Virus record (IMG/VR): IMGVR_UViG_3300017963_000239
Location: 1 to 64,000 of that record
Reading direction: 5' to 3' (one strand)
DNA from: a virus
Length of the DNA: 64,000 nt
Below the pieces are notes generated by a model. The model searched no databases. It saw nothing but the letters and a program-made list of their open reading frames with translations, and had not been told where the DNA came from. The translations under genes and the position numbers were made by a program. Positions 14,514 through 43,969 of this stretch are shown here, piece after piece; the first letter of the stretch is position 1, and each line of letters starts with the position of its first letter.

Positions 14514-14625
14514 GGGGTCTTGAGAAGTTCGGTTCTCATTATCTGGGATTGCCCCTCGGCCTCGTCACACAGGCCAACCAGTACTTCCCCACACGCTTGG
14601 GGGTTCGATTCCCCCAGACCCCGCC
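14514..14625 (+). ncRNA. tRNA-like RNA whose anticodon arm is replaced by a CTCGG/CCAAC hairpin
   Basis: GGGGTCT/AGACCCC acceptor, D-like hairpin, T arm GGGGGTTCGATTCCCCC, central CCTCGGCCT-CGTCACAC-AGGCCAAC. Confidence 0.7.
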
Positions 14626-14630
14626 GATTA

Positions 14631-14773
14631 GTGACCAACGGATCAGATCGTACATGCAACGTATGCGGGTTCGAGTCCCGTCACTTCCGCCAAACTGGAA
14701 ATGAAGCCCGACTGGTAGGGCACTAGCCTCGAAAGCTAGCACAACGCTAACCCCGGTCTCCTCACTCGGTCAC
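14631..14773 (+). ncRNA. circularly permuted tRNA-Ser(CGA)-like RNA with CCAAC/CTCGG stem
   Basis: T arm, CACTTCC-G-CCA, GGAAATG, D arm, anticodon arm loop CTCGAAA; closed by GTGACC/GGTCAC. Confidence 0.78.
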
Positions 14774-15765: not shown

Positions 15766-15933
15766 GGCATCCAACAGATCAAGTCATACATGCATCCTCG
15801 AAAGAGGGCTCCAGGTTCGAGTCCTGGCTCCGCGACCAGCCCGCAAGGGCTACAAACCGCGGAGTGGCGGAATGGTAGACGCACTTGTGTTTGGAACAAG
15901 CAAAACGCTTTCTGGCCTGTTCACTCGGATGCC
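15766..15933 (+). ncRNA. circularly permuted class-II tRNA-like RNA with CCAAC/CTCGG stem
   Basis: Variable arm, T arm, CTCCGCG-A-CCA, hairpin, CGCGGAG, Leu-type D arm, anticodon arm loop GTTTGGA; closed by GGCATCC/GGATGCC. Confidence 0.78.
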
Positions 15934-16285: not shown

Positions 16286-16834
16286 GTGGCGGCGAAGAAG
16301 AAGCTCCCGTACCAACCGAATTGGGAGAGGACGTCTACCAGCACGGGCTACAAGGTAGTTCATTGCCCCGACCACCCGAGAGCGTGGAGCACCGGGTACG
16401 TGTACGTGCACGTCGTGGTCATGGAGGCGAAGCTGGGGCGCTTGTTGAGACGTGGAGAGGTGGTTCACCACGACAACGAGGACCGGTTGGACAACGATCC
16501 AGACAACCTGGTGCTGACGTCGAAGGTAGGGCACGGCAAGGAGCACGCGAGGCCGCAGAGACAAGTAGGTTTGACCTGCGCTAACTGCGGCAAGAAGTTC
16601 AAGAGACGTCTGGGCCAAGAGCCCTCCAAGAAAGGAGCCAAGAGGGCGTTCTGTTCGCGGCGCTGCAACGGGTTGGCAAACGGCTTCAAGGGAAACCACG
16701 GGGTTCGACATGGGACACTCGTGGCCTACAACTACAGGGGTTGTCGCTGCTCGTTGTGCAAGGAAGCCAAATCTCGGTACTATCGATCAAGAAAGAAAGC
16801 CCTCGACGCCGATGGACGGCATCCGGATTCCTAA
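16286..16834 (+). CDS. HNH homing-type endonuclease
   Basis: VHVVVME..EVVHHDNEDRLDN..NL, HGT..CRCSLC; stop lies in anticodon loop of tRNA-Arg(CCT). Confidence 0.88.
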   Translation: MAAKKKLPYQPNWERTSTSTGYKVVHCPDHPRAWSTGYVYVHVVVMEAKLGRLLRRGEVVHHDNEDRLDNDPDNLVLTSKVGHGKEHARPQRQVGLTCANCGKKFKRRLGQEPSKKGAKRAFCSRRCNGLANGFKGNHGVRHGTLVAYNYRGCRCSLCKEAKSRYYRSRKKALDADGRHPDS

Positions 16835-16872
16835 TCCGGTCGGTGCAGGTTCGATTCCTGCCGGGGGTGCCA
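16799..16872 (+). tRNA. tRNA-Arg(CCT), atypical D arm
   Basis: Loop TTCCTAA, T arm, CCA. Confidence 0.8.
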
Positions 16873-17788: not shown

Positions 17789-18061
17789 ATGGGCAAGCTA
17801 GGTCATCTGGTCCGTCATTTGCGGGAGGGTATGGGTGCCGTGGTTAGCGGTGAGTTCGGATCCCCGCAGGCTCCTGAGACCATTCCTGGTGGTGAGGGTG
17901 CTCATCTGACCCCGCAGGACGTCGACCCCGAGCAGTTGGCTTTGGGGGCCGCGGTCGAGATGGAGCACACGAAGGACCCGAAGACGGCCATGGAGATCGC
18001 GCTCGATCACTTGGCCGAAGACCCGAAGTACTACGACAAGCTGCTGTCGCTCGGGCTCTGA
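17789..18061 (+). CDS. DUF5661-like phage protein
   Basis: QLALGAAVEMEHT..AMEIALDHLAEDPKYYDKL. Confidence 0.6.
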   Translation: MGKLGHLVRHLREGMGAVVSGEFGSPQAPETIPGGEGAHLTPQDVDPEQLALGAAVEMEHTKDPKTAMEIALDHLAEDPKYYDKLLSLGL

Positions 18062-18136
18062 GCAGCAACACATAGCTCCACGGAGGAGCGTTCCGAGCAC
18101 TGGAACTTCACGTGCTCCTCCGTTTCTTTGCGTCTT

Positions 18137-18211
18137 GGGGATGTGGTCTAGCTAGGCGAGGACGCTGGATTGTCGATCCAGAGGTCGCGGGTTCGAATCC
18201 CGTCATCCCCG
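18137..18211 (+). tRNA. tRNA-Asp(GTC)
   Basis: Cloverleaf, loop TTGTCGA. Confidence 0.9.
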
Positions 18212-18213
18212 CT

Positions 18214-18254
18214 GTGGTCGTAGCTCAATCGGTAGAGCGTCTGGATGTGGCCCA
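18214..18254 (+). pseudogene. 5' half of tRNA-His(GTG)
   Basis: GTGGTCGTAGCTCAATCGGTAGAGCGTCTGGATGTGG then no T arm. Confidence 0.75.
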
Positions 18255-18274
18255 AAAGTGTTAGGCTCACAACC

Positions 18275-18703
18275 ATGCCAGCGAAGACCAAGAAGTGTGG
18301 GAAGTGCCAGAAGCGCAAGCCTGTGGATCAGTTTTACTGGAAGGACAAGGCGCGGGGGACGAGGCATTCGTACTGCAGGGCGTGTTTCGCCGCGCGCCAC
18401 AAGACTTACTACCAGGAGAACAAGCAGTACTACTTGGAGAAGAAGGCGCGCTGCAAGCAGAGGCTCCGCGAGTATGTGAACGAACTGAAGCGCGCGCCGT
18501 GTACGGACTGTGGCCGGACGTACCCGCCCTACGTGATGGACTTTGATCACTTGAATGGGGAGGAGAAGGGGGGCCTCGTGGCGCATTTGGTGGCGCAGGG
18601 GCAGGTTCGGAGAGCCAAAGAAGAGATAGCTAAGTGCGAGCTGGTATGCGCCAACTGTCACAGGATCAGAACGCACGAAAGACGTATGGAGGTCGTAGCC
18701 TAA
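18275..18703 (+). CDS. HNH homing-type endonuclease
   Basis: CTDC..MDFDHL..KCELVCANCHR; stop inside downstream tRNA-His. Confidence 0.85.
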   Translation: MPAKTKKCGKCQKRKPVDQFYWKDKARGTRHSYCRACFAARHKTYYQENKQYYLEKKARCKQRLREYVNELKRAPCTDCGRTYPPYVMDFDHLNGEEKGGLVAHLVAQGQVRRAKEEIAKCELVCANCHRIRTHERRMEVVA

Positions 18704-18760
18704 CGGTTAAGGCACAGGATTGTGGCTCCTGGTATGCCGGTTCGATTCCGGTCGATCTCC
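18688..18760 (+). tRNA. tRNA-His(GTG)
   Basis: G-1, loop TTGTGGC, C73. Confidence 0.88.
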
Positions 18761-18872
18761 CCGGTGGTCGAGTCCGCTCGGTCACCCCACTACGCCCCTG
18801 GAGCCGGGTACTCCGGCGGGGCCAACAAGGAGAAGAAGAGAGACAAGGGTGTGGCAACCCAGGCAGGTAGCC

Positions 18873-20030
18873 ATGAACAAGGTACACGTGAACGTCGGAA
18901 CCATCGGACACATCGACCATGGGAAGACGACCCTCACCGCGGCGATCACCAAGGTGATGGCGGAGCTTCACGGTGGGAAGGTGGTCCCCTTCAACAAGAT
19001 CGACAACGCACCGGAAGAGCAGAAGCGCGGCGTGACCATCAACACGTCGCACGTGGAGTACGAGTCGGCGACGCGGCACTACGCGCACGTCGACTGTCCG
19101 GGGCACGCTGACTACATCAAGAACATGATCACCGGTGCGGCCCAGATGGACGGCGCGGTGCTTCTGGTCGATGGGTCGCAGGGTCCGCAGGTGCAGACCA
19201 AGGAGCACATCCTGCTTGCGAAGCAGGTGGGTGTGGAGAGGATGGTGGTGTTCATCAACAAGGTGGACATCGCAGACCCCGAGCTGCTGGAGTTGGTCGC
19301 CTTGGAGACGGCCGAGCATCTGGAGGCGCAGGGATACGAGGACTCTCCGGTGGTCCAGGGCTCCGCTCTGAAGGCTCTGGAGGGCTCTGAGACGGGCTGC
19401 ATCGTCGAGCTGGTCGAAGCCATGGACAGGCACTTCCCGGACCCTGTGAGGGACTTCGAGGCGCCTTTCATGCTGCCTATCGAGGGAGTCCACACCATCG
19501 AAGGCCGCGGCACTGTGGTCACCGGTCGTGTGGAGCGTGGTGTGTTGCCTCTCGGGGCGACGGTCGAGATCATCGGTCTGGTGGACGAGGACTCCAAGCC
19601 TCGCCAGGTCGTGGTCACGGGCATCCAGATGTTCCACAAGGACCAACCCGAAGCGCGGGCCGGAGAGAACTGTGGCCTGTTGCTGCGCGGTGTTCGTCGG
19701 GACGAGGTGGTTCGGGGTCAGGTGCTCATCGTGCCGGGCTCCGTGCGGTCTCACATGAAGGCGAAGGCCGAGCTGTTCGTGTTGTCGAAGGAGGACGGGG
19801 GTCGGCACACTCCGATCTTCAAGGGCTACCGCCCACAGTTCTTCTTCGGCACGACCAACGTCACGGGCACCGTGGCGGACATCGGCGAGCTGGACTTGGT
19901 CAAGCCTGGCGAGCACGCCGAAGTAGCGCTGGAGTTGCAGAAGCCTGTCGGCATGGAAGCTGGCATGCGATTCGCTGTTCGTGAGAGCAGCAAGACCGTC
20001 GCTGCAGGTGTGGTCCTCAGCGTCACGTAG
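18873..20030 (+). CDS. tuf: elongation factor Tu (divergent)
   Basis: [58 protein letters not shown]. Confidence 0.96.
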
Positions 20031-20062
20031 AACGGGCAGGCCGGTCCCGCAAACCGGCCATT

Positions 20063-20139
20063 GGGGATGTGGTGCAGTCGCGTAGCACACTTGCCTGTCA
20101 CGCAAGAGGTCGCGGGTTCAAGTCCCGTCATCCCCGCCA
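20063..20139 (+). tRNA. tRNA-Asp(GTC)
   Basis: Cloverleaf, loop CTGTCAC, CCA. Confidence 0.9.
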
Positions 20140-20140
20140 A

Positions 20141-20269
20141 GCGCCCATCGGATCAGATCAAACAAGCATCCTACGTAGCTCAGATGGTAGAGCAGCGGCC
20201 TCTCAAGCCGCCGGCCATGGGTTCAATTCCCATCGCGGGTAACACAACATGATCTTTTCACTCGGGCGC
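20141..20269 (+). ncRNA. tRNA(CTC)-like cloverleaf embedded in CCATC/CTCGG stem
   Basis: GCGCCCATC..AGATCA [cloverleaf, loop CTCTCAA] TGATCT..CACTCGGGCGC. Confidence 0.72.
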
Positions 20270-20277
20270 CCATTTTT

Positions 20278-20814
20278 CTAGGGCTCGTGACATCCTCGGC
20301 ACCTCGCCTCGTAGGACTCGGCGCCGCCGACTTTCACTTGTTCTTCACCATGCACGAGCCTCTGGGTTCGACTGGCTTCCTTGCCGCACCGGGAGCACAC
20401 AGCGCGTACTTTGGTCACGGTTTCAGCGATGGCCATCAACTCAGGGACAGGGTGGAAGGGGCGCCCCTGAAAGTCTTGGTCTAGGCCGGCGACGATGACG
20501 CGGTAGCCCTTGTCTGCCAGGATGTTGATTCCATCGATCATGTCGTTGTCGAAGAACTGCGCTTCGTCGATGGCTACGACGTCGGTCTCAGGCTTGACGC
20601 GACGAATGAGATCGTAGCTCGAAGCCACTGGCTCGGCTTCGATGTCGATCCCTTGGTGGCTTACGATCTTCTCTTTGGCGTAGCGGTCGTCAACGGACGG
20701 CTTGAACGCCTGAACGGTTTGCTTCGCGAACAGGGCTCGGCGCACGCGGCGGATCAACTCTTCGGTTTTGCCGCTGAACATCGAGCCCACAACAACTTCA
20801 ACATGTCCTGACAT
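20278..20814 (-). CDS. tdk: thymidine kinase
   Basis: [31 protein letters not shown]. Confidence 0.95.
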
Positions 20815-20819
20815 GTTCT

Positions 20820-20893
20820 AGGGGTATAGCTCAGCTAGGGAGAGCAGCGGATTCCAAATCCGCAGGTCGGGAGTTCGATTCTCTCTGCCCCTG
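20820..20893 (+). tRNA. tRNA-Trp(CCA)
   Basis: Cloverleaf, loop TTCCAAA. Confidence 0.9.
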
Positions 20894-20897
20894 CTAC

Positions 20898-20947
20898 GGG
20901 CCAGTAGCTCAGTAGGTTAGAGCGTCCGCCTGATAAGCGGGAGGTCG
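20898..20947 (+). pseudogene. 3'-truncated tRNA-Ile(GAT)
   Basis: Canonical acceptor 5', D and anticodon arms (CTGATAA), stops after AGGTCG. Confidence 0.8.
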
Positions 20948-20972
20948 TTTATTCTAACCTGGACAATTTCTT

Positions 20973-21044
20973 GGACTGCAATGCTCTGGTTGAGCTACGA
21001 TGCCTGATAAGCATCGTGGCGGGGTCCAATTCCCCGGCGGTCCA
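20973..21044 (+). tRNA. tRNA-Ile(GAT), atypical replacement copy
   Basis: GGACTGC/GCGGTCC, loop CTGATAA, T loop TCCAATT. Confidence 0.72.
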
Positions 21045-21047
21045 CCG

Positions 21048-21623
21048 ATGAGCAAACAACGCAGGGATTCCCAGGGCCGTCTTCTTCTAGAATTTCGGTG
21101 TCCTTGTGGGAAGAGGTTCTGGGCACGCCCCAGACCTCCGAACAAGTCGGGGAAGCGGTATTGTAGCTTGGTGTGCTACGGGAGGCTTAGGGACTTTTCT
21201 GGATCTAAAAACCCCAACTGGAGGGGAGGGTCGTTCCAGAGTGGCAAGGGTTACTGGTATGTTCATATGCCAGATCATCACCGAGCGATGAAGAATGGCT
21301 ACGTCAAGAGGGCGGATGTTGTAGCCGAGAAGAAGATCGGGAGGAAGTTGTTGCCTAACGAGGTGGTGCACCACGAAGATTCAGATCCGAGCAACGACAG
21401 CCTAGACAACCTAGTGGTCAAGGACTCCCTAGCGCATATCAGAGAGCACGCAGTGAAGAGGCGAAAGCCTAAGAAGTCAAAGAAGGCTCGAAAGTCTGTT
21501 TGTTGGCCCTCCGATAGCGTGCTTTTGGAGATGGCTAAGACCATGACACAGCGCCAAATGGCAACGCTTCTTGGGTGCAGTCAGCCCGCCGTATTCTATC
21601 GCCTGCACCGTTCTCGTCGTTGA
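21048..21623 (+). CDS. HNH homing-type endonuclease
   Basis: KNPNWRGG, EVVHHEDSDPSND..NL, C-terminal HTH. Confidence 0.85.
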   Translation: MSKQRRDSQGRLLLEFRCPCGKRFWARPRPPNKSGKRYCSLVCYGRLRDFSGSKNPNWRGGSFQSGKGYWYVHMPDHHRAMKNGYVKRADVVAEKKIGRKLLPNEVVHHEDSDPSNDSLDNLVVKDSLAHIREHAVKRRKPKKSKKARKSVCWPSDSVLLEMAKTMTQRQMATLLGCSQPAVFYRLHRSRR

Positions 21624-22040
21624 GCCCTGAGCAGCTTCCGCACATCATCTGCGGACCGGCTGCTCAGGACGAGGCGCAGCTGCGTGGAAAGCTCCCGCAT
21701 GCGCGCGCAGACGTCGCACTGGCAGCCGGGTTTGGTCTGTTGGTGCTCGTTCCAGATCTTCAGCTCTTGCTCTTCGACGGCAGTCATGCTGCCATCATGC
21801 CTGAGAGCTGAAGCTCATCTTGCACGACGCCGGTCGATTTCCGGCTGGAGGTAGACATGAAGAGGTCGATGCCGCCGTAGCCCCTCCTTCTGCGTGAAGG
21901 AGGTGGCCTATGTGTCGCTACTGCCAAATCGTCTGGTCCCTGCTGGGGCCGGGCTATCTCTGTCGCCCTTGCTGGAGGAAGAAGTATCGGAATGCGAAGA
22001 AGGGTCGGTAAGACCGGCTGAGGGCTAGCTGCCCTCACAC

Positions 22041-22071
22041 GGGCCTGTAGCTCAGCTGGGAGAGCGCTTCG
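22041..22071 (+). pseudogene. 5' half of tRNA-Ala
   Basis: GGGCCTGTAGCTCAGCTGGGAGAGCGCTTCG, ends at anticodon loop. Confidence 0.8.
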
Positions 22072-22086
22072 TGCTACACTGGCAAA

Positions 22087-22578
22087 ATGCTGGAAGTGGT
22101 TGTGAGGTACGAGAAACCTGGAGATCCGTATGTCCGTGTTCGGCTGTCGGATGGCCGGGTCGTGCGTGAGCACAGGTTCATCATGGAGTGCAAGCTAGGT
22201 CGGAAGCTCTCCCCTAGCGAGCACGTCCATCATAAGGACTTGAACCCCCGGAACAACGAGGAGAGCAACTTAGAATTGAAGTCGCGGGCGGATCACTGCC
22301 GCCTGCACCGCCCTGTGGCGCGGAAGGTTAGACTGCGCTGTCCTACTTGCGGGTGTTGTTTCGAACGCACTGCCAGGTATGTCAGGTCCAAGAAGAAGCT
22401 AGGCCAGCACAGTTTCTTCTGCGGTCGTAGCTGCCGGGGACCTAGGGGCGGAGAAACAACACGAAAGGTCACCGCGCATGGGTCTCGCGGAGGCTATTTG
22501 AGGGGCTGTCGGTGTGCTGAGTGTCGAGAGGCGCAGGCGCACTACATGCGCGAGTACAGATCAAAGGGGCTGTGGTGA
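22087..22578 (+). CDS. HNH homing-type endonuclease
   Basis: EHRFIME..HVHHKDLNPRNN..NL, HGS..CRCAEC. Confidence 0.88.
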   Translation: MLEVVVRYEKPGDPYVRVRLSDGRVVREHRFIMECKLGRKLSPSEHVHHKDLNPRNNEESNLELKSRADHCRLHRPVARKVRLRCPTCGCCFERTARYVRSKKKLGQHSFFCGRSCRGPRGGETTRKVTAHGSRGGYLRGCRCAECREAQAHYMREYRSKGLW

Positions 22579-22636
22579 AAGGGGATCACGCAACCATGGC
22601 ATGGTTGTATTACGGGTTCGAATCCCGTCAGCTCCA
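22566..22636 (+). tRNA. tRNA-Ala(GGC)
   Basis: G3:U70, loop ATGGCAT. Confidence 0.85.
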
Positions 22637-22652
22637 CTAGGGACCTTCCGGT

Positions 22653-22691
22653 CGGCGGGGGTCGGGGGTTCGAGTCCCCCTAGGTCCACCA
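22653..22691 (+). pseudogene. 3' half of tRNA-Ala
   Basis: T arm plus TAGGTCC-A-CCA pairs with GGGCCTG at 22041. Confidence 0.8.
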
Positions 22692-22806
22692 TCGGCCCCT
22701 CTGAGGGCAGCTTAGGCGTCAGGGCAGCGCGACGAACGACCCAGTACTCGGACAGCTGCAAGTCGAGCTGCGGGGCATCCTCCTGACGGGAGGCCCCGCC
22801 GATGAC

Positions 22807-23022
22807 CTACTTCTTCTCGGGCTCGGCGGTCGCAGCGGCCGACGCGGTGGCGCTGGCTGTCGCTGTGGCGGTCGCCGTAGCAGTCGCTTCGGCAGTCGCG
22901 GTGCTGGTCTCTGCGGCGGCGGTCGACGTCTCCTTGGTGGGGACGGTTTCTTCGGCCTTCTTCTCGTCGCAGGCGGACAGGAAGCAGATCGCGATCACGA
23001 GGGTAGCTGCTAGGGTCTTCAT
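22807..23022 (-). CDS. small Ala/Thr-rich lipoprotein
   Basis: Signal peptide with lipobox LSAC; AGGAG RBS. Confidence 0.7.
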   Translation of the reverse strand: MKTLAATLVIAICFLSACDEKKAEETVPTKETSTAAAETSTATAEATATATATATASATASAAATAEPEKK

Positions 23023-23340
23023 CGGATTTCTCCTTGCGGTGGAGGTTATACTTCACACCCCGGAGATCGCGCAAAGGGGATTGTCAGAGTGGCCATACGT
23101 CCATGTGGACGCATACGCCTACTTGACTATCGCTTTTCTATAGGCTAATTCTTGAGCCCATGGCGACGAAGAAGGTGATTGTCGACTTCGACGAGGACAT
23201 CCAGAACCTGCGCGACCCCGAGACAGGCCGTTATGTCGAGCTGAACTCCGTTGTGGGAGCCAAGGTCGTAGGGGTGGAGCGGGGTGAGGACGACCAGCTC
23301 GTGTTGATCCTCGAAGGGGTCGAAGACGAAGAAGACTGAC

Positions 23341-23416
23341 GGGCCTGTAGCTCAGCTGGGAGAGCGCTGCGTTCGCAATGCAGAGGTCAGGGGTTCGATT
23401 CCCCTCAGGTCCACCA
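23341..23416 (+). tRNA. tRNA-Ala(CGC)
   Basis: Cloverleaf, loop TTCGCAA, G3:U70, CCA. Confidence 0.92.
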
Positions 23417-23509
23417 GCTCCGGAGCCAAGTCTGTGGGCTCAGTAGCTACACGCGGAGTGACGCCCGCAGCCGGAGTTAGGAGCCTCGCCAGCGCAGCGC
23501 GGCTCTGTT

Positions 23510-23548
23510 GGGCTCATAGCTCAGATGGGAGAGCGCGGCATATTGCAA
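23510..23548 (+). pseudogene. 5' half of tRNA-Ala(TGC)
   Basis: GGGCTCATAGCTCAGATGGGAGAGCG...TTGCAA. Confidence 0.78.
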
Positions 23549-23577
23549 CTGGAGATCGTCGCTGATACTGTACCTGT

Positions 23578-23967
23578 ATGGGGTACAAGTTCGTTAAGGC
23601 TCCCTCTAGCTATCCGGGCAGAACGTATCGCTGGGGCAACCGAGTTCTGGAGCACCACTTGGTATGGTGGGAGAACACAGGACAGGTCGTTCCGGAAGGG
23701 TACGTTGTTCACCATCTGAATGAAGACAAGGAGGACAATCGTTTCGGGAACCTCGCGCTGAAGAAGCGTGGGGAGCACACAACGGATCACCAATTGAAGG
23801 ATCCGCCTGTGGCGTTGGTGTGCTCTTGGTGCGGGAAGAAGATCGAACGTAGCTCTAGAGATGTTCGAAGCAAACGCAAGCAAGGGCAGAGTCGTTTCTT
23901 CTGTTGTTCCGCTCACGCAGCCGCTGCGGGTTGGTCGAGCAGAAGAGCGAGAGGGGTCATCGTCTAA
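23578..23967 (+). CDS. HNH homing-type endonuclease
   Basis: EHHLVW..VVHHLNEDKEDNRFGNL. Confidence 0.88.
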   Translation: MGYKFVKAPSSYPGRTYRWGNRVLEHHLVWWENTGQVVPEGYVVHHLNEDKEDNRFGNLALKKRGEHTTDHQLKDPPVALVCSWCGKKIERSSRDVRSKRKQGQSRFFCCSAHAAAAGWSSRRARGVIV

Positions 23968-24024
23968 TCGGGAGGACGCTAGCCTTGCACGCTGGTAATA
24001 CGGGTTCGAGTCCCGTTGGCTCCA
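23953..24024 (+). tRNA. tRNA-Ala(TGC)
   Basis: G3:U70, loop CTTGCAC. Confidence 0.88.
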
Positions 24025-24130
24025 CTGCGGCAACGTGTGGTCGTCCGCAGGGCTTGACCCGTCCCTGCTAAGTGATCACGCAAGATCCCTAACGGGTCGC
24101 ACAAAGCCGGAAGGCGTGGGGACGCCGCGC

Positions 24131-24175
24131 CTTGCAAGCCTGAGGTCGGGAGTTCGATCCTCCCTGAGTCCACCA
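24131..24175 (+). pseudogene. 3' half of tRNA-Ala(TGC)
   Basis: CTTGCAA..T arm..TGAGTCC-A-CCA pairs with GGGCTCA at 23510. Confidence 0.8.
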
Positions 24176-24622
24176 ATGCAGACGTTCCTACCCTTTCCGG
24201 ACTTTCAGAGATCTGCCTCTGTGCTCGACTGGCGGCGTCTGGGCAAGCAGCGCATCGAGGCGAGGCACATCGTGGAGGTGCTTCTAGGCATCAAGCCTCA
24301 CAGTCGTTACCGGAACCACGCGGCGGTCCGCATGTGGCGAGGCTTCGGACACTTCTTGTGTTCCTACGGCGTCGCCATCTGCCAGGAGTGGCGTGGGCGT
24401 GGCTACCGAGATCAGCAGCTCGAAGCCTTCCAACGCCTGCGGAAGCTCGCCGAGCGCGAGGATCAACACGGAACGCCGCCTTGGTTTGGAGACGCTGCGT
24501 TCCACGCGGCGCACCGAGCTGCTTTGCTCGCCAAGGCTCCGGAGTGGTACGGCCAATTCGGATGGCAGGAGATCCCGCTCGTGGACTACGTGTGGCCTGC
24601 CGGTGTAGCCTATGGCGCATGA
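24176..24622 (+). CDS. pyrimidine-dimer DNA glycosylase/endonuclease V-like (MSMEG_6728 type)
   Basis: MQTFLP..LD..RLGKQRIE..NHAAVRMWRG..HRAALL. Confidence 0.75.
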   Translation: MQTFLPFPDFQRSASVLDWRRLGKQRIEARHIVEVLLGIKPHSRYRNHAAVRMWRGFGHFLCSYGVAICQEWRGRGYRDQQLEAFQRLRKLAEREDQHGTPPWFGDAAFHAAHRAALLAKAPEWYGQFGWQEIPLVDYVWPAGVAYGA

Positions 24623-25527
24623 GCACCATCGACGTCGTTCAGCTAGTCAAGGACGGGAAGGCGAAGTTCGAGTGGGCGGACGTGCTGTCGACGCACGAGG
24701 ACAAGGAGCTGACGATCAGCGTCTTTAGGGACGCGATGAAGTTCGACGACATCCCGGCGTTGACATGGGACTTCAAGCCGATTCCGGGAAACGACCAGAT
24801 CTACAACGGTGTACGGCTGCCAGCTTCGGCTGACCAGTTGCAGCAGATCGCCGACGTGCTCGGGTGCATGCTGCTGACCCCGAAGGTCGTAGATCTCATC
24901 TGGCTCCAAGCGCAGCTCAAGTTCAACCCGGTCATCAACGACGGCCCCCCGCGGTACAACATCGTGGCAATCTCCAACATCAACGATGTCCACGACCTCA
25001 TTCAGAAGAAGATCGAGGGAGCTGGCGGTGACGACGGCTACAAGCTCATCGCCTGTGTGGGCAAGTACTGGGTGCTTTGCAATGCGCTTGGGCAGATGGT
25101 CGTGGTCCACGGAGATCTGCAGGCATTCAACTACGGATGGCCTGATGCGAACGCTCCTACCTCACGCCGCGGTGTCACGTCGGGCGTGAAGGTATGGCAG
25201 AACCTAGCGGGAGCCCACAACAAGCTGCACTGGGATCCATCGCAGACCATTCGGCTGATGTTCCAGTGGGCCTGGTTGAAGGTGGGCGATGCGGATCCCG
25301 TTCAGATCCATCTGCATGACGTGGCCTCCGATCCCGAGCTGGCGCCACTGTTGCACCACGAGGGTGAGCTGAAGGTGTTCCGGCAGTCGGGGGTGCCCGA
25401 GCCGAAGGGCGAGGTGCAGGAAGACGGAACCATTCTGATGCCCGAGATCATCATCTACGGCGCTCCTCCGAAGCACCCGATGGTTCCCGTCCGCGAGGGC
25501 GGTCATCGAGTGAAGGTGATTTCTTAG
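24619..25527 (+). CDS. hypothetical protein
   Basis: ATGA overlap with previous stop, typical codon usage. Confidence 0.65.
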   Translation: MSTIDVVQLVKDGKAKFEWADVLSTHEDKELTISVFRDAMKFDDIPALTWDFKPIPGNDQIYNGVRLPASADQLQQIADVLGCMLLTPKVVDLIWLQAQLKFNPVINDGPPRYNIVAISNINDVHDLIQKKIEGAGGDDGYKLIACVGKYWVLCNALGQMVVVHGDLQAFNYGWPDANAPTSRRGVTSGVKVWQNLAGAHNKLHWDPSQTIRLMFQWAWLKVGDADPVQIHLHDVASDPELAPLLHHEGELKVFRQSGVPEPKGEVQEDGTILMPEIIIYGAPPKHPMVPVREGGHRVKVIS

Positions 25528-25534
25528 ACGAAGT

Positions 25535-25612
25535 GCCGCTGTAGCTCAGTTCTGGCAGAGCACAGTCTTGGTAAGACTGGGGTCATCGGTTCGACTCCGA
25601 TCAGCGGCTCCA
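25535..25612 (+). tRNA. tRNA-Thr(GGT)
   Basis: Cloverleaf, loop TTGGTAA, CCA. Confidence 0.92.
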
Positions 25613-25615
25613 CAT

Positions 25616-25690
25616 GCGGGTGTAGTTCAGGGGTAGAACGTCAGCTTCCCAAGCTGAATGTCGTCGGTTCAAATCCGATCATCCGCTCCA
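25616..25690 (+). tRNA. tRNA-Gly(CCC)
   Basis: Cloverleaf, loop TTCCCAA, CCA. Confidence 0.92.
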
Positions 25691-25694
25691 ACTT

Positions 25695-25766
25695 GCGGGC
25701 ATAGCCAAGTGGTAAGGCCGTGGGTTTCCAACCCACCATTCGCCGGTTCGAATCCGGCTGTCCGCT
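25695..25766 (+). tRNA. tRNA-Gly(TCC)
   Basis: Cloverleaf, loop TTTCCAA. Confidence 0.9.
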
Positions 25767-25844
25767 CCGCCGGGGAAATGGAGTACCCGGATGGTCTGTT
25801 TGATCAAACCGACTAACCAAGCCGGCTCGGGAGGGCCGGCATCT

Positions 25845-25919
25845 GCGGGTGTAACTCAGTGGTAGAGTACTTGCTTGCCAAGCAAGATGCCGTGGGTTCG
25901 AATCCCATCACCCGCTCCA
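25845..25919 (+). tRNA. tRNA-Gly(GCC)
   Basis: Cloverleaf, loop TTGCCAA, CCA. Confidence 0.92.
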
Positions 25920-26079
25920 ACGTGTAGAGTAGGCGCCATGGGTGCAGCGTTCATCGCAGTGACCGCCATCTTCGTTCTCGGCTTTTTGCCCGGCTACTTC
26001 GTGGGCTACGTTCACGGAGGGAACGACGAGAAGGCCAAGCGCCCCGAACCCGAACCTGTGTGGGGGGAGGACGTCGAAG

Positions 26080-36063: not shown

Positions 36064-36148
36064 GCACAGGTGGCGGAACTAGGCAGACGCGCGGGCTTCA
36101 GGTGCCCGTACCCTTCGGGGTGTGAGGGTTCGATTCCCTCTCTGTGCA
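36064..36148 (+). tRNA. tRNA-Leu(CAG)
   Basis: Class II cloverleaf, loop TTCAGGT. Confidence 0.9.
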
Positions 36149-36230
36149 CCGCTGGTCGAGGACAGCAGTCCGGGGAAAGCCTGGTGAGAGAAGCAGGCCC
36201 ACGGAAGGCGAAGCCTGCCGACCAGCATTC

Positions 36231-36319
36231 GCGAACGTGGCGGAATTTTGGTAGACGCGCAGGCTTGAGGTGCCTGTGGCCCACTAGTGGCTGTGAGGGT
36301 TCGATTCCCTCCGTTCGCA
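36231..36319 (+). tRNA. tRNA-Leu(GAG)
   Basis: Class II cloverleaf, loop TTGAGGT. Confidence 0.9.
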
Positions 36320-36386
36320 CTGCTTCTTCGGAAGCGTGGTGGAGCCGCCGACCGGGCTTACCCCCGGTCGGCCCTTTTTCACCTCC

Positions 36387-36732
36387 GGGCTCGATCGGTT
36401 TCGACGTGGAGGAAAGGAAAGATTCGCGTGTAGGCAGCGCTCGACCTGCCTTGATCAATCGAGCAATTTGCAGTTGCCAACGACAACAGCACCCCTCTGG
36501 CCGCGAAGGCGGCCTGAGCGCTGGGCGGGTAGGAGTCCGAGTACCCCGCAGGCGCCAATACCACACGGACTGTGCTCGGGGAGGTTGGCACCGCCGATGC
36601 CCGAGCGAGACTTTCGGTGCTGGACAGGCTGGAGAGACGGCCAAGCCCTGCTGTGAGGGTAGATCAGCTACGCACGTGAACGAGGATCTTGACGGAACTC
36701 GGCGGACCAGGGTTCGATTCCCTGCGGGTCCA
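36387..36732 (+). ncRNA. ssrA: tmRNA
   Basis: 5' GGGCTCGATCGGTTTCGAC, 3' GACCAGGGTTCGATTCCCTGCGGGTCCA with G3:U; tag ANDNSTPLAAKAA* at 36476-36517. Confidence 0.9.
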
Positions 36733-36785
36733 CGAAGTCTCCATTGAGCATTGCAGGGAGCGTCCATAAGAGGTACATTGGTCGA

Positions 36786-37397
36786 ATGGCTCTTGTGGAC
36801 GTGACCTGCGCTCAATGCGGGAAGAAGGTGAAGAAGCCGGTGGGAGAGGTGAACAGGTCGGTCAGGCTAGGGCGCAAGTTTTTCTGTGGCTCTGTCTGTT
36901 CCGGGTTGTTCAGCGGACAAGCTCGGGCTGCGGTGGAGGTCAAGAAGACGTGCCCTCATTGTGGGGAGGACTTCGTGACGACGACCAAAGCACGAGCCAA
37001 GAAGTTCTGTTCTAGATCCTGTGCCAGTAAGGGGAGCATGTCCGAAGAGCGCCGGGAGGCGCAGCGTCTGGCGGGCCTCGCGCACGCGCAGAATCTTCTT
37101 TCCCCTGCGGAGACCTTGAAGCAGCGCGAAGCCTGGAAGTACGCAGCGCTGGAGAAGGTGTTGCGGGAGGCGGATCGGGACTTCGAGTTCGAGTATCAGG
37201 TCGGTGGGTTCGTGTTCGACCTGGCTCTTTTGGACGAGAAGGTTCTGGTAGAGTTCGACGGCCCTCACCATCGAGGGGACGAAGCAGAACGAGACAAGCA
37301 CAAGGAGAAGATGGCGAAGAAACGAGGATTCGTCGTGGTCCGTCGAGAAGTAAAGGCGGCCTCGGTGATTTCCCCAGACACGATCAAGGAACTCTAG
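36786..37397 (+). CDS. DUF559/Vsr-like PD-(D/E)xK homing-type endonuclease
   Basis: CxxC..FCS zinc repeats; FEYQVGGFVFDLAL..VEFDGPHH. Confidence 0.8.
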   Translation: MALVDVTCAQCGKKVKKPVGEVNRSVRLGRKFFCGSVCSGLFSGQARAAVEVKKTCPHCGEDFVTTTKARAKKFCSRSCASKGSMSEERREAQRLAGLAHAQNLLSPAETLKQREAWKYAALEKVLREADRDFEFEYQVGGFVFDLALLDEKVLVEFDGPHHRGDEAERDKHKEKMAKKRGFVVVRREVKAASVISPDTIKEL

Positions 37398-37425
37398 TGG
37401 GGTTCGATTCCCCGCAGGTCCACCA
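37398..37425 (+). pseudogene. orphan second 3' end of tmRNA
   Basis: GGGGTTCGATTCCCCGCAGGTCCACCA, near-copy of 36709-36735. Confidence 0.8.
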
Positions 37426-37469
37426 CGGTTCTCTCGACGCGGCACCGAAGCCGCAGAGAGGCAGACATC

Positions 37470-37793
37470 ATGAAGCGAGAGTACAACACAGGACAGCACG
37501 TCATCTTCGTCGATCCTCACGGCATTCGACGGGACGCGCTCGTCACCATCTGGCACTGCACCGACAACCGCGAGGCTTGGTTGGAATCTCAACAGGTCAA
37601 CCGGGAGTCGTGGGCCAAGCAGGATCCCCCGGTCGATGTGCCGGTGACAGAGACCTGCTGCAACTTGGTCTGGGTCAGCGGAGACGAGAAGCGGACGGAC
37701 TCCTACGGTCGTCAGATCGTTCGAGAGTCGTCGGTAGTCCACAAGGGCAGCCAGCCTGCCCACGGGAACTACTGGCTCTGGCCTGACGAGTAG
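37470..37793 (+). CDS. hypothetical protein
   Basis: GAGG RBS, typical codon usage. Confidence 0.55.
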   Translation: MKREYNTGQHVIFVDPHGIRRDALVTIWHCTDNREAWLESQQVNRESWAKQDPPVDVPVTETCCNLVWVSGDEKRTDSYGRQIVRESSVVHKGSQPAHGNYWLWPDE

Positions 37794-37924
37794 TCGAGCT
37801 TGACTGCCAGGCCGGAACCGCGCAGGAACCGGAAGGCTGTTTCGATGTCGCGTCGAGAGGATCGATCAAGCCGAGACGCGTTGATCTGTGGCGTTATTGG
37901 CAGACACGTGATAGCTTAAAGACT

Positions 37925-38011
37925 GCCCGGATGCTGGAATTGGTTTACAGGCCGGTTTCAAAAACCGGTGTCCTCCGGGGCATGAGGGTTCGACTCCCTC
38001 TCCGGGCACCA
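37925..38011 (+). tRNA. tRNA-Leu(CAA)
   Basis: Class II cloverleaf, loop TTCAAAA, CCA. Confidence 0.9.
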
Positions 38012-38012
38012 G

Positions 38013-38561
38013 ATGTTCAACCCCTACGATAAGGAGATCAAGAAGGTCTATGGGCCGTACATGCGTTCTTACCCTCGGGGGGTGTCAAGGCGGCAAGTTG
38101 TGATCTGTTTCGAGGACGGTTCGCGAACAACAATGTCGTACTCCCGATGGTTGATGACACAGCACTTGGGCCGGGCTCTCGGCGGTGGCGAACATGTAGA
38201 TCACGAGAACGAGGACCCGCAGGATGACAGGATCGAGAACTTGCAGTTGCTGTCTCCTGGCGAGAATGCGGCGAAGTCGAATCGGTCACGCCCGTCCCCT
38301 TTGAAGGGTGTGGAGAAGGGTTGGTCACATGGGACGGTCTACGGTTGGATGAAGAAGAAGTGCTCGTGTGGGGAGTGTTCAGCCGCTAAGCGGCGCTGGT
38401 TGGACGCTCGCAACGAGGCGCGTCGTGGAGGGGGCGAGGGGCGCAGTTATCAGAAGGCTGTGCATGGTTCCCGGTCGATGTACCGGAAGGGTTGTAGGTG
38501 CCCCTTGTGTCGTCAGGCTCAGACTGAGTATGCCCGCGAGTACAGGAATCGCAGAAGATGA
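38013..38561 (+). CDS. HNH homing-type endonuclease
   Basis: EHVDHENEDPQDDRIENLQLL; two HG..CxCxxC motifs. Confidence 0.85.
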   Translation: MFNPYDKEIKKVYGPYMRSYPRGVSRRQVVICFEDGSRTTMSYSRWLMTQHLGRALGGGEHVDHENEDPQDDRIENLQLLSPGENAAKSNRSRPSPLKGVEKGWSHGTVYGWMKKKCSCGECSAAKRRWLDARNEARRGGGEGRSYQKAVHGSRSMYRKGCRCPLCRQAQTEYAREYRNRRR

Positions 38562-38872
38562 GCGCAGTCGCAGCATACGCGAGGAGATACCGGGAGGACG
38601 CTTTGCCTTCGCGCCAGCAGATTCCTCCGACGTGCGACCCCCGATGGGAGCGCTGGTGCGCTCCCCTGCTGGAGTTCATCCGGCAGTCTCCGCGGACGTG
38701 GGAGGACTTGCGCGTGTGGGAGAAGGAGAACAGCATTCGGCCGTCGCTTCTTCTGCAGATGCTCTGCTGGCTTGAGTTCAATCACCGCGTGGTTGCGGTG
38801 ACAGAAGGCGGACCCGTTCTGTGGTGCGCCGCAAGGAGAGATCCGAAATGACATGGAAGCAATGAAGGTGAG

Positions 38873-40123
38873 GTGATCAAGATGACTAGGAGAACATTGA
38901 AGCTGACGAGTTGGTACATGCCGATCCAGATCATGTCCTGGCAGGACGCGATCAGCGACGTGTACTTGGGTAGGGTGGTTCCGGTCGTGGACTACGACGC
39001 GGAGGTCCGCTCGCCTTCCACCGTGATGAAGATTCCGGCGGTGGTCCGCATTCCGCGCGCCACGGGAACCATCAAGCGAGGCATCAAGTTCTCCAAGCTC
39101 AACGTGGCAGCTCGGGACCAGTACCGCTGTCAGTACTGTTTGTCTCCAGATCACAGGGTGCTTACGGCGGGGCTGCGGTGGGTTTCTCTGGGTGACCTAG
39201 GTGTTGGAGATCAACTCGTAGGGTTCGATGAAAGCGCGGGGTATGGGATGCTTCGACGCTTCAAGACCTCAGTCGTGGAGGAGATCAGGCTTACGAGGGC
39301 TCCGTTGTTTCGTGTGGTTTTGGACGATGGGACTGTCTTCAGAGCTACGATCGACCACCGCTGGTTGGTGTACAAGTCGCAGGCGCTTCGTTGGAGAACC
39401 ACGAAACAGCTCAAGCCTGGTCGCAGAGTTCCTCGTTTGTTTGACCTGTGGTCAGATCTAACAAGTTGGGATGCTGGGTGGCTGGCCGGCATGTTCGACG
39501 GAGAGGGGTGGTTGGAGACAACGACTAACCTCGGTATTGCAGTAGGGCAGAACCCTGGATACTGCTACGATCGCATAAGCGCGCTAGTCGCCGTTTTCGG
39601 TTTCGACTATTCCTCGACTCAGGTGAATACCGACAGGGACTGTCACCGTCTACGTATCCTTGGGGCGGCTTCGGACAAATCCAGGTTTCTTGGCAGTGTT
39701 CGGCCTCGGAGGTTGTTGGATCAGTTTCGCCCTGAGATGCTGGGAGCCCTCCGCGCTCGGTCGGTTGCCGCTGTGGAATGTGTTGAGTCTGCCGGGTCTG
39801 GGGAGATTGTAGAAATACGGACTTCTACGGGGACGCTGGTGGTGGAGGGTTTCCCCCATCACAACTGCCTGACGAAGCTGCCGGTCTCGAAGATCACCTA
39901 CGACCACGTGTTCCCAAAGTCCCGCGGAGGCGAGACGACGTGGGACAACGTGGTGAGCGCGTGCTCCGAGTGCAACTCGCGTAAGGACAACAAGACGCCG
40001 GAAGAGGCGGGCATGCGGCTGCACACCGTGCCTCGGCGTCCGCACTCGCTGCCGGTCGAGCCGCTGCGGTTGAAGGACATGCCTGGCATTCCTGAGCAGT
40101 GGCTGGAGTTCGCTGTAGCGTAG
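38873..40123 (+). CDS. HNH endonuclease (McrA-like) containing an intein
   Basis: RDQYRCQY|intein|C..TYDHVFPKSRGG..WDNVVSACSECNSRK. Confidence 0.88.
   Translation: MIKMTRRTLKLTSWYMPIQIMSWQDAISDVYLGRVVPVVDYDAEVRSPSTVMKIPAVVRIPRATGTIKRGIKFSKLNVAARDQYRCQYCLSPDHRVLTAGLRWVSLGDLGVGDQLVGFDESAGYGMLRRFKTSVVEEIRLTRAPLFRVVLDDGTVFRATIDHRWLVYKSQALRWRTTKQLKPGRRVPRLFDLWSDLTSWDAGWLAGMFDGEGWLETTTNLGIAVGQNPGYCYDRISALVAVFGFDYSSTQVNTDRDCHRLRILGAASDKSRFLGSVRPRRLLDQFRPEMLGALRARSVAAVECVESAGSGEIVEIRTSTGTLVVEGFPHHNCLTKLPVSKITYDHVFPKSRGGETTWDNVVSACSECNSRKDNKTPEEAGMRLHTVPRRPHSLPVEPLRLKDMPGIPEQWLEFAVA
39137..39865 (+). mobile_element. intein with LAGLIDADG motif (243 aa)
   Basis: C1 CLSPDHRV, TIDHRWL, WLAGMFDGEG, ends HHN before Cys+1. 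Confidence 0.88.
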
Positions 40124-40154
40124 CTCGTGGCCCCGGAGCGAAACGGGGCAACCA

Positions 40155-40184
40155 CGGGATGTGGCCTAGTCTGGTTAAGGCGCC
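40155..40184 (+). pseudogene. 5' fragment of tRNA-Pro
   Basis: CGGGATGTGGCCTAGTCTGGTTAAGGCGCC; CGGGATG pairs perfectly with CATCCCG of downstream tRNA-Pro. Confidence 0.8.
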
Positions 40185-40210
40185 AAGCTTTTGCTAGGCT
40201 AGGCTACATC

Positions 40211-40720
40211 ATGTGGAAGCTGCGGGGTCGGAAGCGGGAGAGTAAAGGGCTGTCAGGGTACGAAACAGTCTGTCTTCCGGAGCACCCGAAGGCGGACGGT
40301 CGTGGTCGTGTGTATCTCCATAGGGTTCTGATGGAGAACCACTTAGGGCGCGTGTTAGGGGAAGATGAAGTTGTCCATCACAAGAATGGTGACCCCCGAG
40401 ACAATAGGATCAAAAATTTGGAGATCCTATCGAGAGTGGACCATGCCGCGTTCCACGGGAAAGCCCGACGCGGTCGGGTCGAAGAGTGCGAGTGCGCGAA
40501 TTGTGGGACTCGGTTTGAGCGCCTTCGGAGGAAGCTTCAGGGGCAGCGAACCTTTTGCAGTAGGCGCTGTGTGATGCTTTTCTACAAGCCCCGGCCGCCT
40601 CGTACACCGAGGGTCGTAGAGCACGGCACGAACTCCATGTACAAGAACCACGGCTGTCGCTGTTTTGACTGCCGCCGTGCTCATGCCGAGGCCATGAAGT
40701 CGTACAGAAACGGGGTGTAG
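40211..40720 (+). CDS. HNH homing-type endonuclease
   Basis: LHRVLME..EVVHHKNGDPRDNRIKNL, HGT..CRCFDC. Confidence 0.88.
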   Translation: MWKLRGRKRESKGLSGYETVCLPEHPKADGRGRVYLHRVLMENHLGRVLGEDEVVHHKNGDPRDNRIKNLEILSRVDHAAFHGKARRGRVEECECANCGTRFERLRRKLQGQRTFCSRRCVMLFYKPRPPRTPRVVEHGTNSMYKNHGCRCFDCRRAHAEAMKSYRNGV

Positions 40721-40787
40721 TTCAGCTTGGAAGAACGCCGCGCTGGGGGCGCGGAGGCCGGAGGTTCAAATCCTCTCATCCCGACCA
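40711..40787 (+). tRNA. tRNA-Pro(GGG)
   Basis: Cloverleaf, loop CTGGGGG, CCA. Confidence 0.9.
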
Positions 40788-43475: not shown

Positions 43476-43969
43476 TGGACTCTGCTTTTCTCCGGCGCGT
43501 TAGGAAGACCCCTGACGGTTGTTGGGTGTGGACGGGCGCCACGATTCGGGGCACTCGCGGAGGAAGGTACGCTTACCTGACGCGAGACGGCGAGAACTGG
43601 CTGGGGCATCGTTGGGCCTATACGCAAGCACGCGGAGAGATCCCCGATGGTCTCGTTTTAGATCATATCTGCAGAAACACCCTCTGTGTTAACCCAGACC
43701 ATCTGGAAGCCGTGACGAATCAAGTAAACAGTCGGCGCGGGCGCATAGGAGACAAGCAGCGGTCGAAGTTCGAATCTCGAACCCACTGCCGCCACGGCCA
43801 CCCGATGACTTCGGAAAACACGAGGTTGCAGCGTACTAGGCCGAAGGGTCGTACCAACCCTGACGGATCCCCCTACGAATTTTGGGCTCGTCGCTGTCGG
43901 TTGTGCGAGAAGATTCAGAACAAGCGGTATCGAGAGAAACGATCCAGCGCTGGAGATCATCATGGGTAA
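43475..43969 (+). CDS. HNH homing-type endonuclease
   Basis: CWVWTG, HRWAY, LDHICRNTLCVNPDHLE, HCRHGH. Confidence 0.88.
   Translation: MDSAFLRRVRKTPDGCWVWTGATIRGTRGGRYAYLTRDGENWLGHRWAYTQARGEIPDGLVLDHICRNTLCVNPDHLEAVTNQVNSRRGRIGDKQRSKFESRTHCRHGHPMTSENTRLQRTRPKGRTNPDGSPYEFWARRCRLCEKIQNKRYREKRSSAGDHHG

Follow-up and report, generated by a model that had tools for sequence, protein, structure and literature searches.

Bacteriophage T4 carries, in its cluster of transfer RNA (tRNA) genes, a GIY-YIG homing endonuclease called SegB. SegB is free-standing and cuts tRNA genes of related phages (PMC2330249), and the unit made up of tRNA-Tyr and segB can move or amplify as a block (PMC13096335). Our subject is a set of nuclease genes of another type, HNH, found in a stretch of viral DNA: positions 1 to 64,000 of IMG/VR record IMGVR_UViG_3300017963_000239, which we call the window. 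Several of these genes lie inside a tRNA gene and bring with them a tRNA gene of the same isotype. We think it likely that each is a homing cassette without an intron, an endonuclease gene that targets a tRNA gene and brings along a substitute tRNA. The likeness to SegB is that of a free-standing nuclease in a phage tRNA array, SegB and its neighbouring tRNAs being preferentially inherited. The differences begin with the enzyme, GIY-YIG in the one case and HNH in the other. SegB also sits between tRNA genes, whereas the HNHs of the window sit inside one, and neither a split target nor a dedicated same-isotype replacement has been described for SegB, which recognises the conserved T loop of many tRNAs.

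A second parallel comes from fungal mitochondria, where endonuclease open reading frames (ORFs) carry a foreign C-terminal segment, as in atp6 of Allomyces and in atp6, atp9, cox2 and nad3 of Glomus (PMC3630166). There, as here, an insertion into an essential gene comes with a divergent copy of the part displaced and leaves a native remnant. The fungal remnant is unexpressed, as ours would be, and it is nearer to the allele of relatives than the carried copy is, a feature shared by the Kuravirus coliphages described below. The mitochondrial enzymes are LAGLIDADG or GIY-YIG, however, their targets are protein genes of organelles, and replacement, which lies upstream of the ORF, is confined to the 3' end of the gene. 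In our case HNH enzymes occur in a phage genome, the targets are tRNA genes (plus the transfer-messenger RNA, tmRNA, and one tail gene), and the whole gene or its 5' part is usually supplied downstream of the ORF. An endonuclease ORF in a host gene, a divergent copy and a native remnant occur together at tRNA genes, at the tmRNA gene and at a baseplate wedge gene. Because the enzymes are HNH and the genome is a phage's, we regard the cassettes as resembling the mitochondrial mobile ORFs without being members of that group.

HNH enzymes encoded by group I introns come from the same HNH family, have a tRNA target in or near the anticodon loop, and have their site destroyed by insertion. They differ in how the gene is made good: by RNA splicing in the introns, by a carried gene copy in the window, where there is no ribozyme core. 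HNH genes are also the most widespread protein genes in the tRNA arrays of mycobacteria and mycobacteriophages, and have been suggested to diversify the tRNA repertoire and to move arrays (PMC5966550, PMC6409571, PMC6582537). In the sections that we draw on, those papers report co-location only; a resident tRNA in two pieces, a fusion of HNH and tRNA, and alleles with and without the insertion go unmentioned. Full-text searches of the literature, which did not reach Pope et al. 2014, the work that these papers cite, gave no account of an HNH that is joined to an entire replacement tRNA and lies within the resident tRNA gene.

A preliminary description of the window, made from the letters alone, had claimed that HNH cassettes repeatedly interrupt a tRNA gene and supply a divergent tRNA of the same isotype. 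At three loci, His, Ala-GGC and Ala-TGC, the order of old 5' piece, HNH and same-isotype tRNA proved correct, and to each we could add an old 3' piece:

18214-18256, plus strand: old tRNA-His, 5' part (acceptor, D arm, and anticodon arm with GTG; Rfam partial tRNA at 18214-18277)
18245-18703, plus strand: HNH gene of the classic type (PHROG 2255, HNH endonuclease, E 5.7e-33), its stop in the new tRNA-His
18689-18762, plus strand: replacement tRNA-His(GTG), G-1:C73 (ARAGORN; Rfam tRNA 62.1 bits)
18763-18789, plus strand: old tRNA-His, 3' part (T arm with a 1-nucleotide deletion, acceptor CGGTCAC, C73, CCA)
22041-22067, plus strand: old tRNA-Ala, 5' part (acceptor GGGCCTG and D arm; nhmmer E 0.016)
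22087-22578, plus strand: HNH_3 gene (Pfam HNH_3 E 4e-7)
22566-22637, plus strand: replacement tRNA-Ala(GGC) (ARAGORN; G3:U70, unusual D arm)
22659-22691, plus strand: old tRNA-Ala, 3' part (variable loop, T arm, TAGGTCC, ACCA; nhmmer E 1e-5)
23510-23548, plus strand: old tRNA-Ala(TGC), 5' part, through to the anticodon loop
23578-23967, plus strand: HNH_3 gene, short form without the C-terminal GCRC motif (Pfam HNH_3 E 9e-12; alignment)
23953-24025, plus strand: replacement tRNA-Ala(TGC), G3:U70 (ARAGORN; Rfam 58.9 bits)
24131-24175, plus strand: old tRNA-Ala(TGC), 3' part, anticodon loop through CCA (nhmmer E 2e-4)

The 3' pieces came from a scan with a profile of tRNA 3' halves, which placed an orphan half past each of the three replacement tRNAs. 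In all three cases the old acceptor strands pair at 7/7 positions, as do only about 0.1-0.2% of random 7-mers from the window. The old His 3' part pairs with GTGGTCG and retains C73-CCA; its partner's anticodon loop, ATGTGGC, is still legible, and the start ATG of the HNH falls within that loop. In Ala-TGC it is TGAGTCC that pairs with GGGCTCA. The G3:U70 pair, the mark of alanine, is retained in both old Ala genes, in Ala-GGC as part of the 7/7 match. Since old 5' and 3' halves flank the HNH and the new tRNA, the cassette is nested in an older gene of the same isotype.

The arrangement is no accident of assembly, because contigs from two independent public runs, one the probable source of the record and the other from seawater, bridge the cassettes with zero differences. 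Wetland runs hold strains 95-99% identical that carry the Ala-GGC and Arg-CCG cassettes. An apparent empty Ala-GGC allele in those wetland runs, a contig end at 22067 together with loose letters spelling an Ala(GGC) anticodon arm, was considered and set aside; the pieces are short and of high depth, may derive from the tRNA-Ala of other organisms, and were not counted.

There are three further loci, two of which (Ile-GAT and Pro-GGG) fit more loosely:

20898-20966, plus strand: old tRNA-Ile(GAT), intact to the variable loop, T arm broken (Rfam tRNA 35.9 bits)
20973-21046, plus strand: replacement tRNA-Ile(GAT), atypical (reported by ARAGORN only, not by the Rfam tRNA model)
21048-21623, plus strand: HNH_3 gene directly after the replacement tRNA-Ile, with an in-frame ATG at 21048
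31013-31034, plus strand: D-arm-like tRNA remnant upstream of the HNH (nhmmer E = 10)
31071-31589, plus strand: HNH_3 gene, homologue of the tRNA-Arg-linked HNH of Kuravirus (Pfam E 6e-10; tblastn)
31580-31653, plus strand: tRNA-Arg(CCG), overlapping the HNH by 10 nucleotides, the HNH stop being TAG at tRNA positions 8-10
40155-40182, plus strand: old tRNA-Pro-like 5' part (acceptor CGGGATG and D arm; nhmmer E 0.56)
40211-40720, plus strand: HNH_3 gene, likely start an ATG past the fragment in a frame open from 40127 (Pfam E 6.5e-13)
40711-40787, plus strand: tRNA-Pro(GGG), whose 3' acceptor strand forms 7/7 Watson-Crick pairs with that of the old 5' part

At Pro-GGG the described 5' piece, HNH and tRNA are all present, with no separate old 3' piece. 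The 3' acceptor strand of the tRNA makes a G.U with its own 5' strand and fits the old 5' strand better, which suggests a crossover inside the gene, so that tRNA-Pro(GGG) may be a chimera. At Ile-GAT the old tRNA has a broken T arm, and the replacement does precede the HNH, as described, in a looser version of the pattern. At Arg-CCG the overlap of the HNH with an intact tRNA holds, and what falls away is the Arg isotype of the upstream piece, which cannot be called from a D-arm-like fragment. Where the pieces lie also matters. Four of the seven orphan 5' pieces are found no more than about 60 nucleotides upstream of an HNH start, a zone that makes up about 2% of the tRNA region; by a binomial estimate such clustering has a chance of about 1e-5. 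Most of the junctions lie in the interval from the end of the D stem to the anticodon loop.

The HNH nucleases of the window fall into two groups. Family A combines an HNH_3 domain with a zinc ribbon and, towards the C-terminus, an HG..Y..GCRC..C motif, and includes the genes starting at 16286, 21048, 22087, 23578, 31071, 38013 and 40211. Family B is of the classic DH..N..CH type, with members at 5203, 6087 and 18245, all three of which match HNH families of PHROG (best E 6e-33). Eight ORFs exceed the Pfam HNH_3 cut-off of 24.8 bits, among them 16286-16834, 22087-22578, 23578-23967, 31071-31589, 38013-38561 and 40127-40720; ORF 21000-21623 scored 23.8 bits with hmmscan, just below the cut-off, and 26.2 bits, above it, in a genome search. 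The HNH catalytic domain is therefore at hand in domain terms, and no GIY-YIG domain was found among the domain matches, where the nucleases are of HNH type only. Four members complete the set needed here:

5203-5769, plus strand: classic HNH gene with its stop within tRNA-Tyr 5738-5822 and no fragment upstream
6087-6536, plus strand: HNH gene of the classic type, flanked by intact tRNA-Lys(TTT) and tRNA-Lys(CTT) genes, with its stop 10 nucleotides into the second
16286-16834, plus strand: HNH_3 gene with its stop 36 nucleotides into tRNA-Arg(CCT) 16799-16872, no fragment seen upstream
38013-38561, plus strand: HNH_3 gene that begins 2 nucleotides past tRNA-Leu(CAA) 37925-38011

Eight HNH ORFs terminate 10-36 nucleotides within a downstream tRNA, and two begin 1-2 nucleotides past a tRNA end. 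The overlaps are 15 nucleotides for His, 13 for Ala-GGC, 15 for Ala-TGC, 10 for Arg-CCG and 10 for Pro-GGG. Those of Tyr, Lys-CTT and Arg-CCT measure 32, 10 and 36, just as the preliminary description had placed these three stops within their tRNAs.

It was outside the window that we found alleles with and without the nuclease. A tblastn search of cultured phages with the Arg-CCG-linked HNH led to Escherichia coli phages of the Kuravirus group, in which the HNH overlaps a tRNA-Arg(TCT) by 10 nucleotides and stops with the TAG at tRNA positions 8-10, exactly as at Arg-CCG in the window. In the occupied genomes O18-011 and YF01 the first 27 nucleotides of an old tRNA-Arg(TCT) remain upstream of the HNH (22 in Bas91), and the order in O18-011 and YF01 is 27-nucleotide remnant, ribosome-binding site, HNH, divergent tRNA-Arg(TCT). 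SGF2 and IME267 have no HNH at the site, and their old tRNA-Arg(TCT) is whole between the same flanking genes. The flanks of SGF2 and O18-011 are 98% identical, so presence and absence of the cassette can be compared in homologous surroundings. The 27-nucleotide remnant of O18-011 is identical to the SGF2 tRNA, and the tRNA that O18-011 carries is strongly divergent; of the two, it is thus the remnant that more resembles the allele of the relatives. In YF01 the identical junction occurs in a different old allele (GCGCTCT vs GCACCCT), which fits spread into different backgrounds. The divergent tRNA-Arg(TCT) was seen in nine records from seven genomes, every one of them HNH-bearing, while the old type is widespread. 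The preliminary description had called for a search for empty alleles in related phages, and had said that the same fragments in relatives lacking the HNH would speak against it. SGF2 and IME267 supply the empty alleles, and their tRNA is intact and unfragmented. A paper on the Kuravirus group mentions a single tRNA and four HNH genes without connecting them (PMC9965538).

The 3' end of the old Kuravirus tRNA is missing altogether. One candidate for it in O18-011, the sequence AGGGTACCA after the new tRNA, was rejected, as it is more probably the spacer found downstream in YF01 and IME267, shortened by a deletion. Separately, an orphan tRNA 3' end, CTGGTTCGATTCCAGATAGTCCACCA, lies about 100 nucleotides past the tRNA-Arg locus (L033 1640-1680, L031 1965-2010). 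It is present in HNH-plus and HNH-minus Kuravirus-like phages alike and may trace an older event.

Relatives of the nucleases also occur elsewhere. The best matches of the window's Lys-CTT-linked HNH adjoin tRNA-Lys in Stenotrophomonas phage BUCTxx99 and Microbacterium phage Magritte, in the latter with an HNH-tRNA overlap that is again 10 nucleotides. Unannotated tRNA-like sequences follow right after an HNH in Mycobacterium phage CicholasNage (L037 1094-1170), where the HNH stop is a TAG at tRNA positions 8-10, and in BUCTxx99 (L035 1122-1196). Among the best 80 IMG/VR relatives of family A, 13 are in tRNA arrays, and in 6 of these 13 a tRNA starts between -20 and +10 nucleotides from the HNH stop. 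The His-linked HNH (18245-18703) drew 251 phage records in tblastn; for this and the Pro-linked HNH, phage HNH genes were matched in large number, none of the matches covering a tRNA. A search for related loci with a single HNH protein returned three partial relatives, none with tRNAs.

The same logic is found in the window at two genes that are not tRNA genes. The tmRNA gene (36387-36733) is followed by a nuclease ORF, 36744-37397, DUF559/Vsr-like and annotated as HNH. Past it lies an orphan second tmRNA 3' end (37388-37425), which ends in ACCA where the resident has ACGA, and which holds the stop of the nuclease ORF. This is the break-and-replace logic of the tRNA cassettes, with the nuclease downstream of the working copy. 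The other case is an HNH gene (60412-61446; PHROG 3377/374, E ~1e-91) between two copies of the start of a baseplate wedge gene. The first 12 codons of the wedge gene are doubled, at 60375-60410 and 61427-61462, and the second copy begins the full gene; the frame of the upstream copy stops after 14 codons. The two copies are identical at 11 of 12 residues and, by our own count over the 36 nucleotides, only about 69% identical in DNA.

How might such a cassette work? Each is an HNH gene joined head to tail with an entire tRNA gene that shares the isotype of the resident and differs in sequence, and the HNH stop falls within the first 10-15 nucleotides of this tRNA, often as a TAG at positions 8-10. 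The resident tRNA is left as a dead 5' piece upstream, with a dead 3' piece downstream in three cases, and the carried tRNA would take over decoding. In our proposal, the HNH would in a mixed infection cut the uninterrupted resident allele of a related phage, and repair would copy the cassette across, using the tRNA halves and the flanking DNA as homology. The occupied allele would be immune because its target site is split, and the carried tRNA because it has other letters in its D arm and anticodon stem. In one variant the right-hand crossover would fall within the tRNA and yield a chimeric tRNA with no 3' remnant, as at Pro-GGG; in another the nuclease lies downstream of the substitute, as at Ile and, in the same window, at the tmRNA 3' end. 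The net effect would be a nuclease that spreads selfishly while the tRNA bodies of phage arrays are steadily replaced and diversified. RNase P, in processing the 5' end of the tRNA, would strip the HNH stop from its message, and nuclease expression could therefore stay low. Cutting of the old allele by the HNH, resistance of the new tRNA and spread by homing are steps that we infer from sequence.

The replacement tRNAs do have unusual D arms and anticodon stems. A D arm beginning TAGCTC occurs in none of the 10 HNH-linked tRNAs, against 15 of the 39 other tRNAs, and counted by eye it is present in six of the seven old 5' pieces; by eye, too, it is found in the Kuravirus old allele and in the exons of intron-bearing relatives. 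The avoidance of TAGCTC by HNH-linked tRNAs is a hint that they may be resistant. An encoded CCA does not separate the HNH-linked tRNAs from the others of the window.

Several observations count against this account. Three HNH-tRNA pairs, those of Tyr, Lys-CTT and Arg-CCT, come without an old fragment. Two genes that are not HNHs also end within tRNAs: 35512-35988 (HAD_SAK_2) and 34868-35302 (no known family) stop 10 nucleotides into Val-GAC and Met, respectively, so ending a gene within a tRNA is something that this genome does generally and is not HNH-specific. There are also 5' fragments with no HNH between them and the intact tRNA they precede. The Arg-like piece at 30836-30866 and the Ser-like piece at 44572-44606 lie 5-15 nucleotides before Arg-ACG (30881) and Ser-TGA (44610), which means that replacement can leave debris without a resident nuclease, or that the nuclease was later lost. 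As tRNAs the Ile and Ala-GGC replacements have low scores, Rfam returning for the latter (22566-22637) only a tmRNA-clan match of 35.1 bits, and their function is for that reason not certain. Nor does the HNH tree group by tRNA isotype. The preliminary description had looked to HNH/tRNA co-phylogeny, which cannot be claimed, because 11 of the 17 inner branches lack resolution and the Arg-linked enzymes are not gathered in a single clade.

To these must be added the want of close relatives. No empty site was found in a close relative of the window's own lineage. The syntenic relatives are nearly without these HNHs and are too divergent for site-by-site comparison, or to tell which allele in the window is ancestral. 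When old and new pieces were set against the same-anticodon tRNAs of relatives linked through their EF-Tu gene, the differences were too small and the relatives too distant. Positions 18000-24100 found no near-identical relative in INPHARED by megablast, and a distant blastn gave generic tRNA and EF-Tu matches only. IMG/VR gave no match when it was scanned for the exact patterns of the replacement tRNAs of Ala-TGC and Arg-CCG.

Of the other ways to explain these loci, one would make the nuclease a bystander. Selection to evade the host's anticodon nucleases or tRNA-cleaving defences would favour the uptake of foreign tRNAs through recombination, and HNH breaks would raise recombination without discriminating old from new. 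SegB gives this idea some substance, since its relaxed specificity lets it cut the conserved T loop of many tRNA genes (PMC2330249) and it promotes amplification of the tRNA-Tyr-segB unit under pressure from Septu (PMC13096335). The window, for its part, has genes of RNA-repair type, a 2'-5' ligase-like gene at 33741-34310 and the HAD_SAK_2 gene at 35512-35988, and its replacement tRNAs have odd D arms and anticodon stems. What the bystander idea leaves unexplained is the tight and fixed fusion of HNH and tRNA, conserved from coliphages to the window phage, and the identical junction in different old alleles. It is compatible with substitute-carrying cassettes and does not exclude them; as the explanation in its own right we consider it improbable.

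Another possibility is that nothing links the pieces: arrays duplicate and decay by themselves, and HNH genes settle in permissive, gene-poor stretches. Orphan tRNA halves do occur without an HNH in the window (at 7451, 14597, 14657, 15806, 30836 and 44572) and in relatives that lack these HNHs, and only 13 of the best 80 IMG/VR relatives of family A are near tRNAs. Yet the fragments are nested around the cassette and not in tandem with it, their isotype is that of the inner tRNA in four or five legible cases, and they are concentrated just upstream of HNH starts to a degree that chance would rarely produce (the estimate of about 1e-5 given above). In Kuravirus the divergent tRNA always comes with the HNH, and HNH-less genomes have the old tRNA whole. 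We give unconnected debris little credence.

The last alternative makes the old halves live exons, with the HNH and the inner tRNA inside a self-splicing intron of group I or some other kind. Bacterial tRNA introns are found in or near the anticodon loop, in tRNA-Leu(UAA), tRNA-fMet and tRNA-Arg, and several insertions in the window are in or near that loop. The same HNH family does live in such introns. On two IMG/VR contigs (L041 and L054, 1366-2046 in each) a family-A HNH lies between the halves of a tRNA-Arg(TCT) split after U34, in inserts of about 600 nucleotides that hold no inner tRNA. A shared block past the ORF scores as a group I intron (for L041, 36.8 bits and E 1.8e-6 against RF00028, under the Rfam gathering score). 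Since family A occurs in tRNA-Arg(TCT) introns, it is a family that targets tRNA genes, and judged by these sequences it occupies both self-splicing tRNA introns and intron-less cassettes with a spare tRNA. For the window itself splicing is a very improbable explanation: RF00028 has zero matches there, short targeted scans included; in His and Ala-GGC the ORF and inner tRNA take every base between the halves, parts abutting or overlapping so that no room is left for a ribozyme; and the halves do not join into a clean tRNA, His being without positions ~44-48 of the variable loop and one T-loop base, Ala-TGC repeating the anticodon loop on either side, no separate 3' half being there for Arg, Pro and Ile and no old 3' end for Kuravirus. 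With neither a ribozyme core between the halves nor halves that make a complete tRNA, the intron-less nature claimed in the preliminary description is borne out.

How far do substitute-carrying cassettes extend? We are evenly divided over a broader proposal, that 'home-and-replace' cassettes form a general, unnamed class of phage mobile element, each pairing a homing nuclease with a resistant full or partial copy of its target, ranging from small coliphages to jumbo phages, hitting tRNAs, tmRNA and structural genes, linked to intron-borne nucleases, and acting as a main engine of turnover and sequence diversification in tRNA arrays. Were it so, the carrying of a spare copy would be a third route by which a homing nuclease can live in an essential gene, beside self-splicing introns and inteins, and the route would extend to RNA genes in viruses. 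It would account for the tRNA pieces that litter phage arrays, and for phage tRNA bodies that differ so strongly from each other and from the tRNAs of the host. A side effect could be a supply of tRNA variants that escape host defences which cleave tRNA, foreign tRNA bodies imported by a nuclease being raw material for escape from the cutting enzymes. For annotation, tRNA halves beside nuclease genes would mark past invasions in place of pseudogenes of unknown origin. All this can be tested now, since occupied (O18-011, YF01, Bas91) and empty (SGF2, EK5, IME267) E. coli phages are in culture.

Lastly, the setting. The window takes in the first 64 kb of a viral contig that is 81,879 bases long and estimated to be about half complete, with a G+C content of ~61%, and in the window ARAGORN reports 49 tRNA genes and the tmRNA. 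Besides the RNA-repair-type genes it encodes EF-Tu, a tubulin-like protein and a DNA methylase. The nearest relatives by EF-Tu are viral contigs of 190-620 kb, with tRNA arrays of similar isotype order, and the lineage of the contig is jumbo-phage-like. The EF-Tu gene itself (18720-20030) is full length, has the three Pfam EF-Tu domains and lies within the tRNA array; homologues of 47-76% identity are found in 26 other large viral contigs, likewise in tRNA arrays. More orphan tRNA halves or partial tRNA-like elements lie away from HNHs, at 7424-7486, 14597-14624, 14657-14692, 14706-14733 and 15806-15837. The tubulin/FtsZ-like gene (41202-43475, 757 amino acids) is followed immediately by an HNH_3 gene at 43475-43969. 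On the minus strand, a cluster of tRNA-like sequences at 27999-28530 has odd anticodons (Tyr-ATA, Ile-AAT and one 'anticodon' of two bases), and within it a tRNA-like sequence at 28263-28347, overlooked by ARAGORN, scores 46 bits with Rfam.

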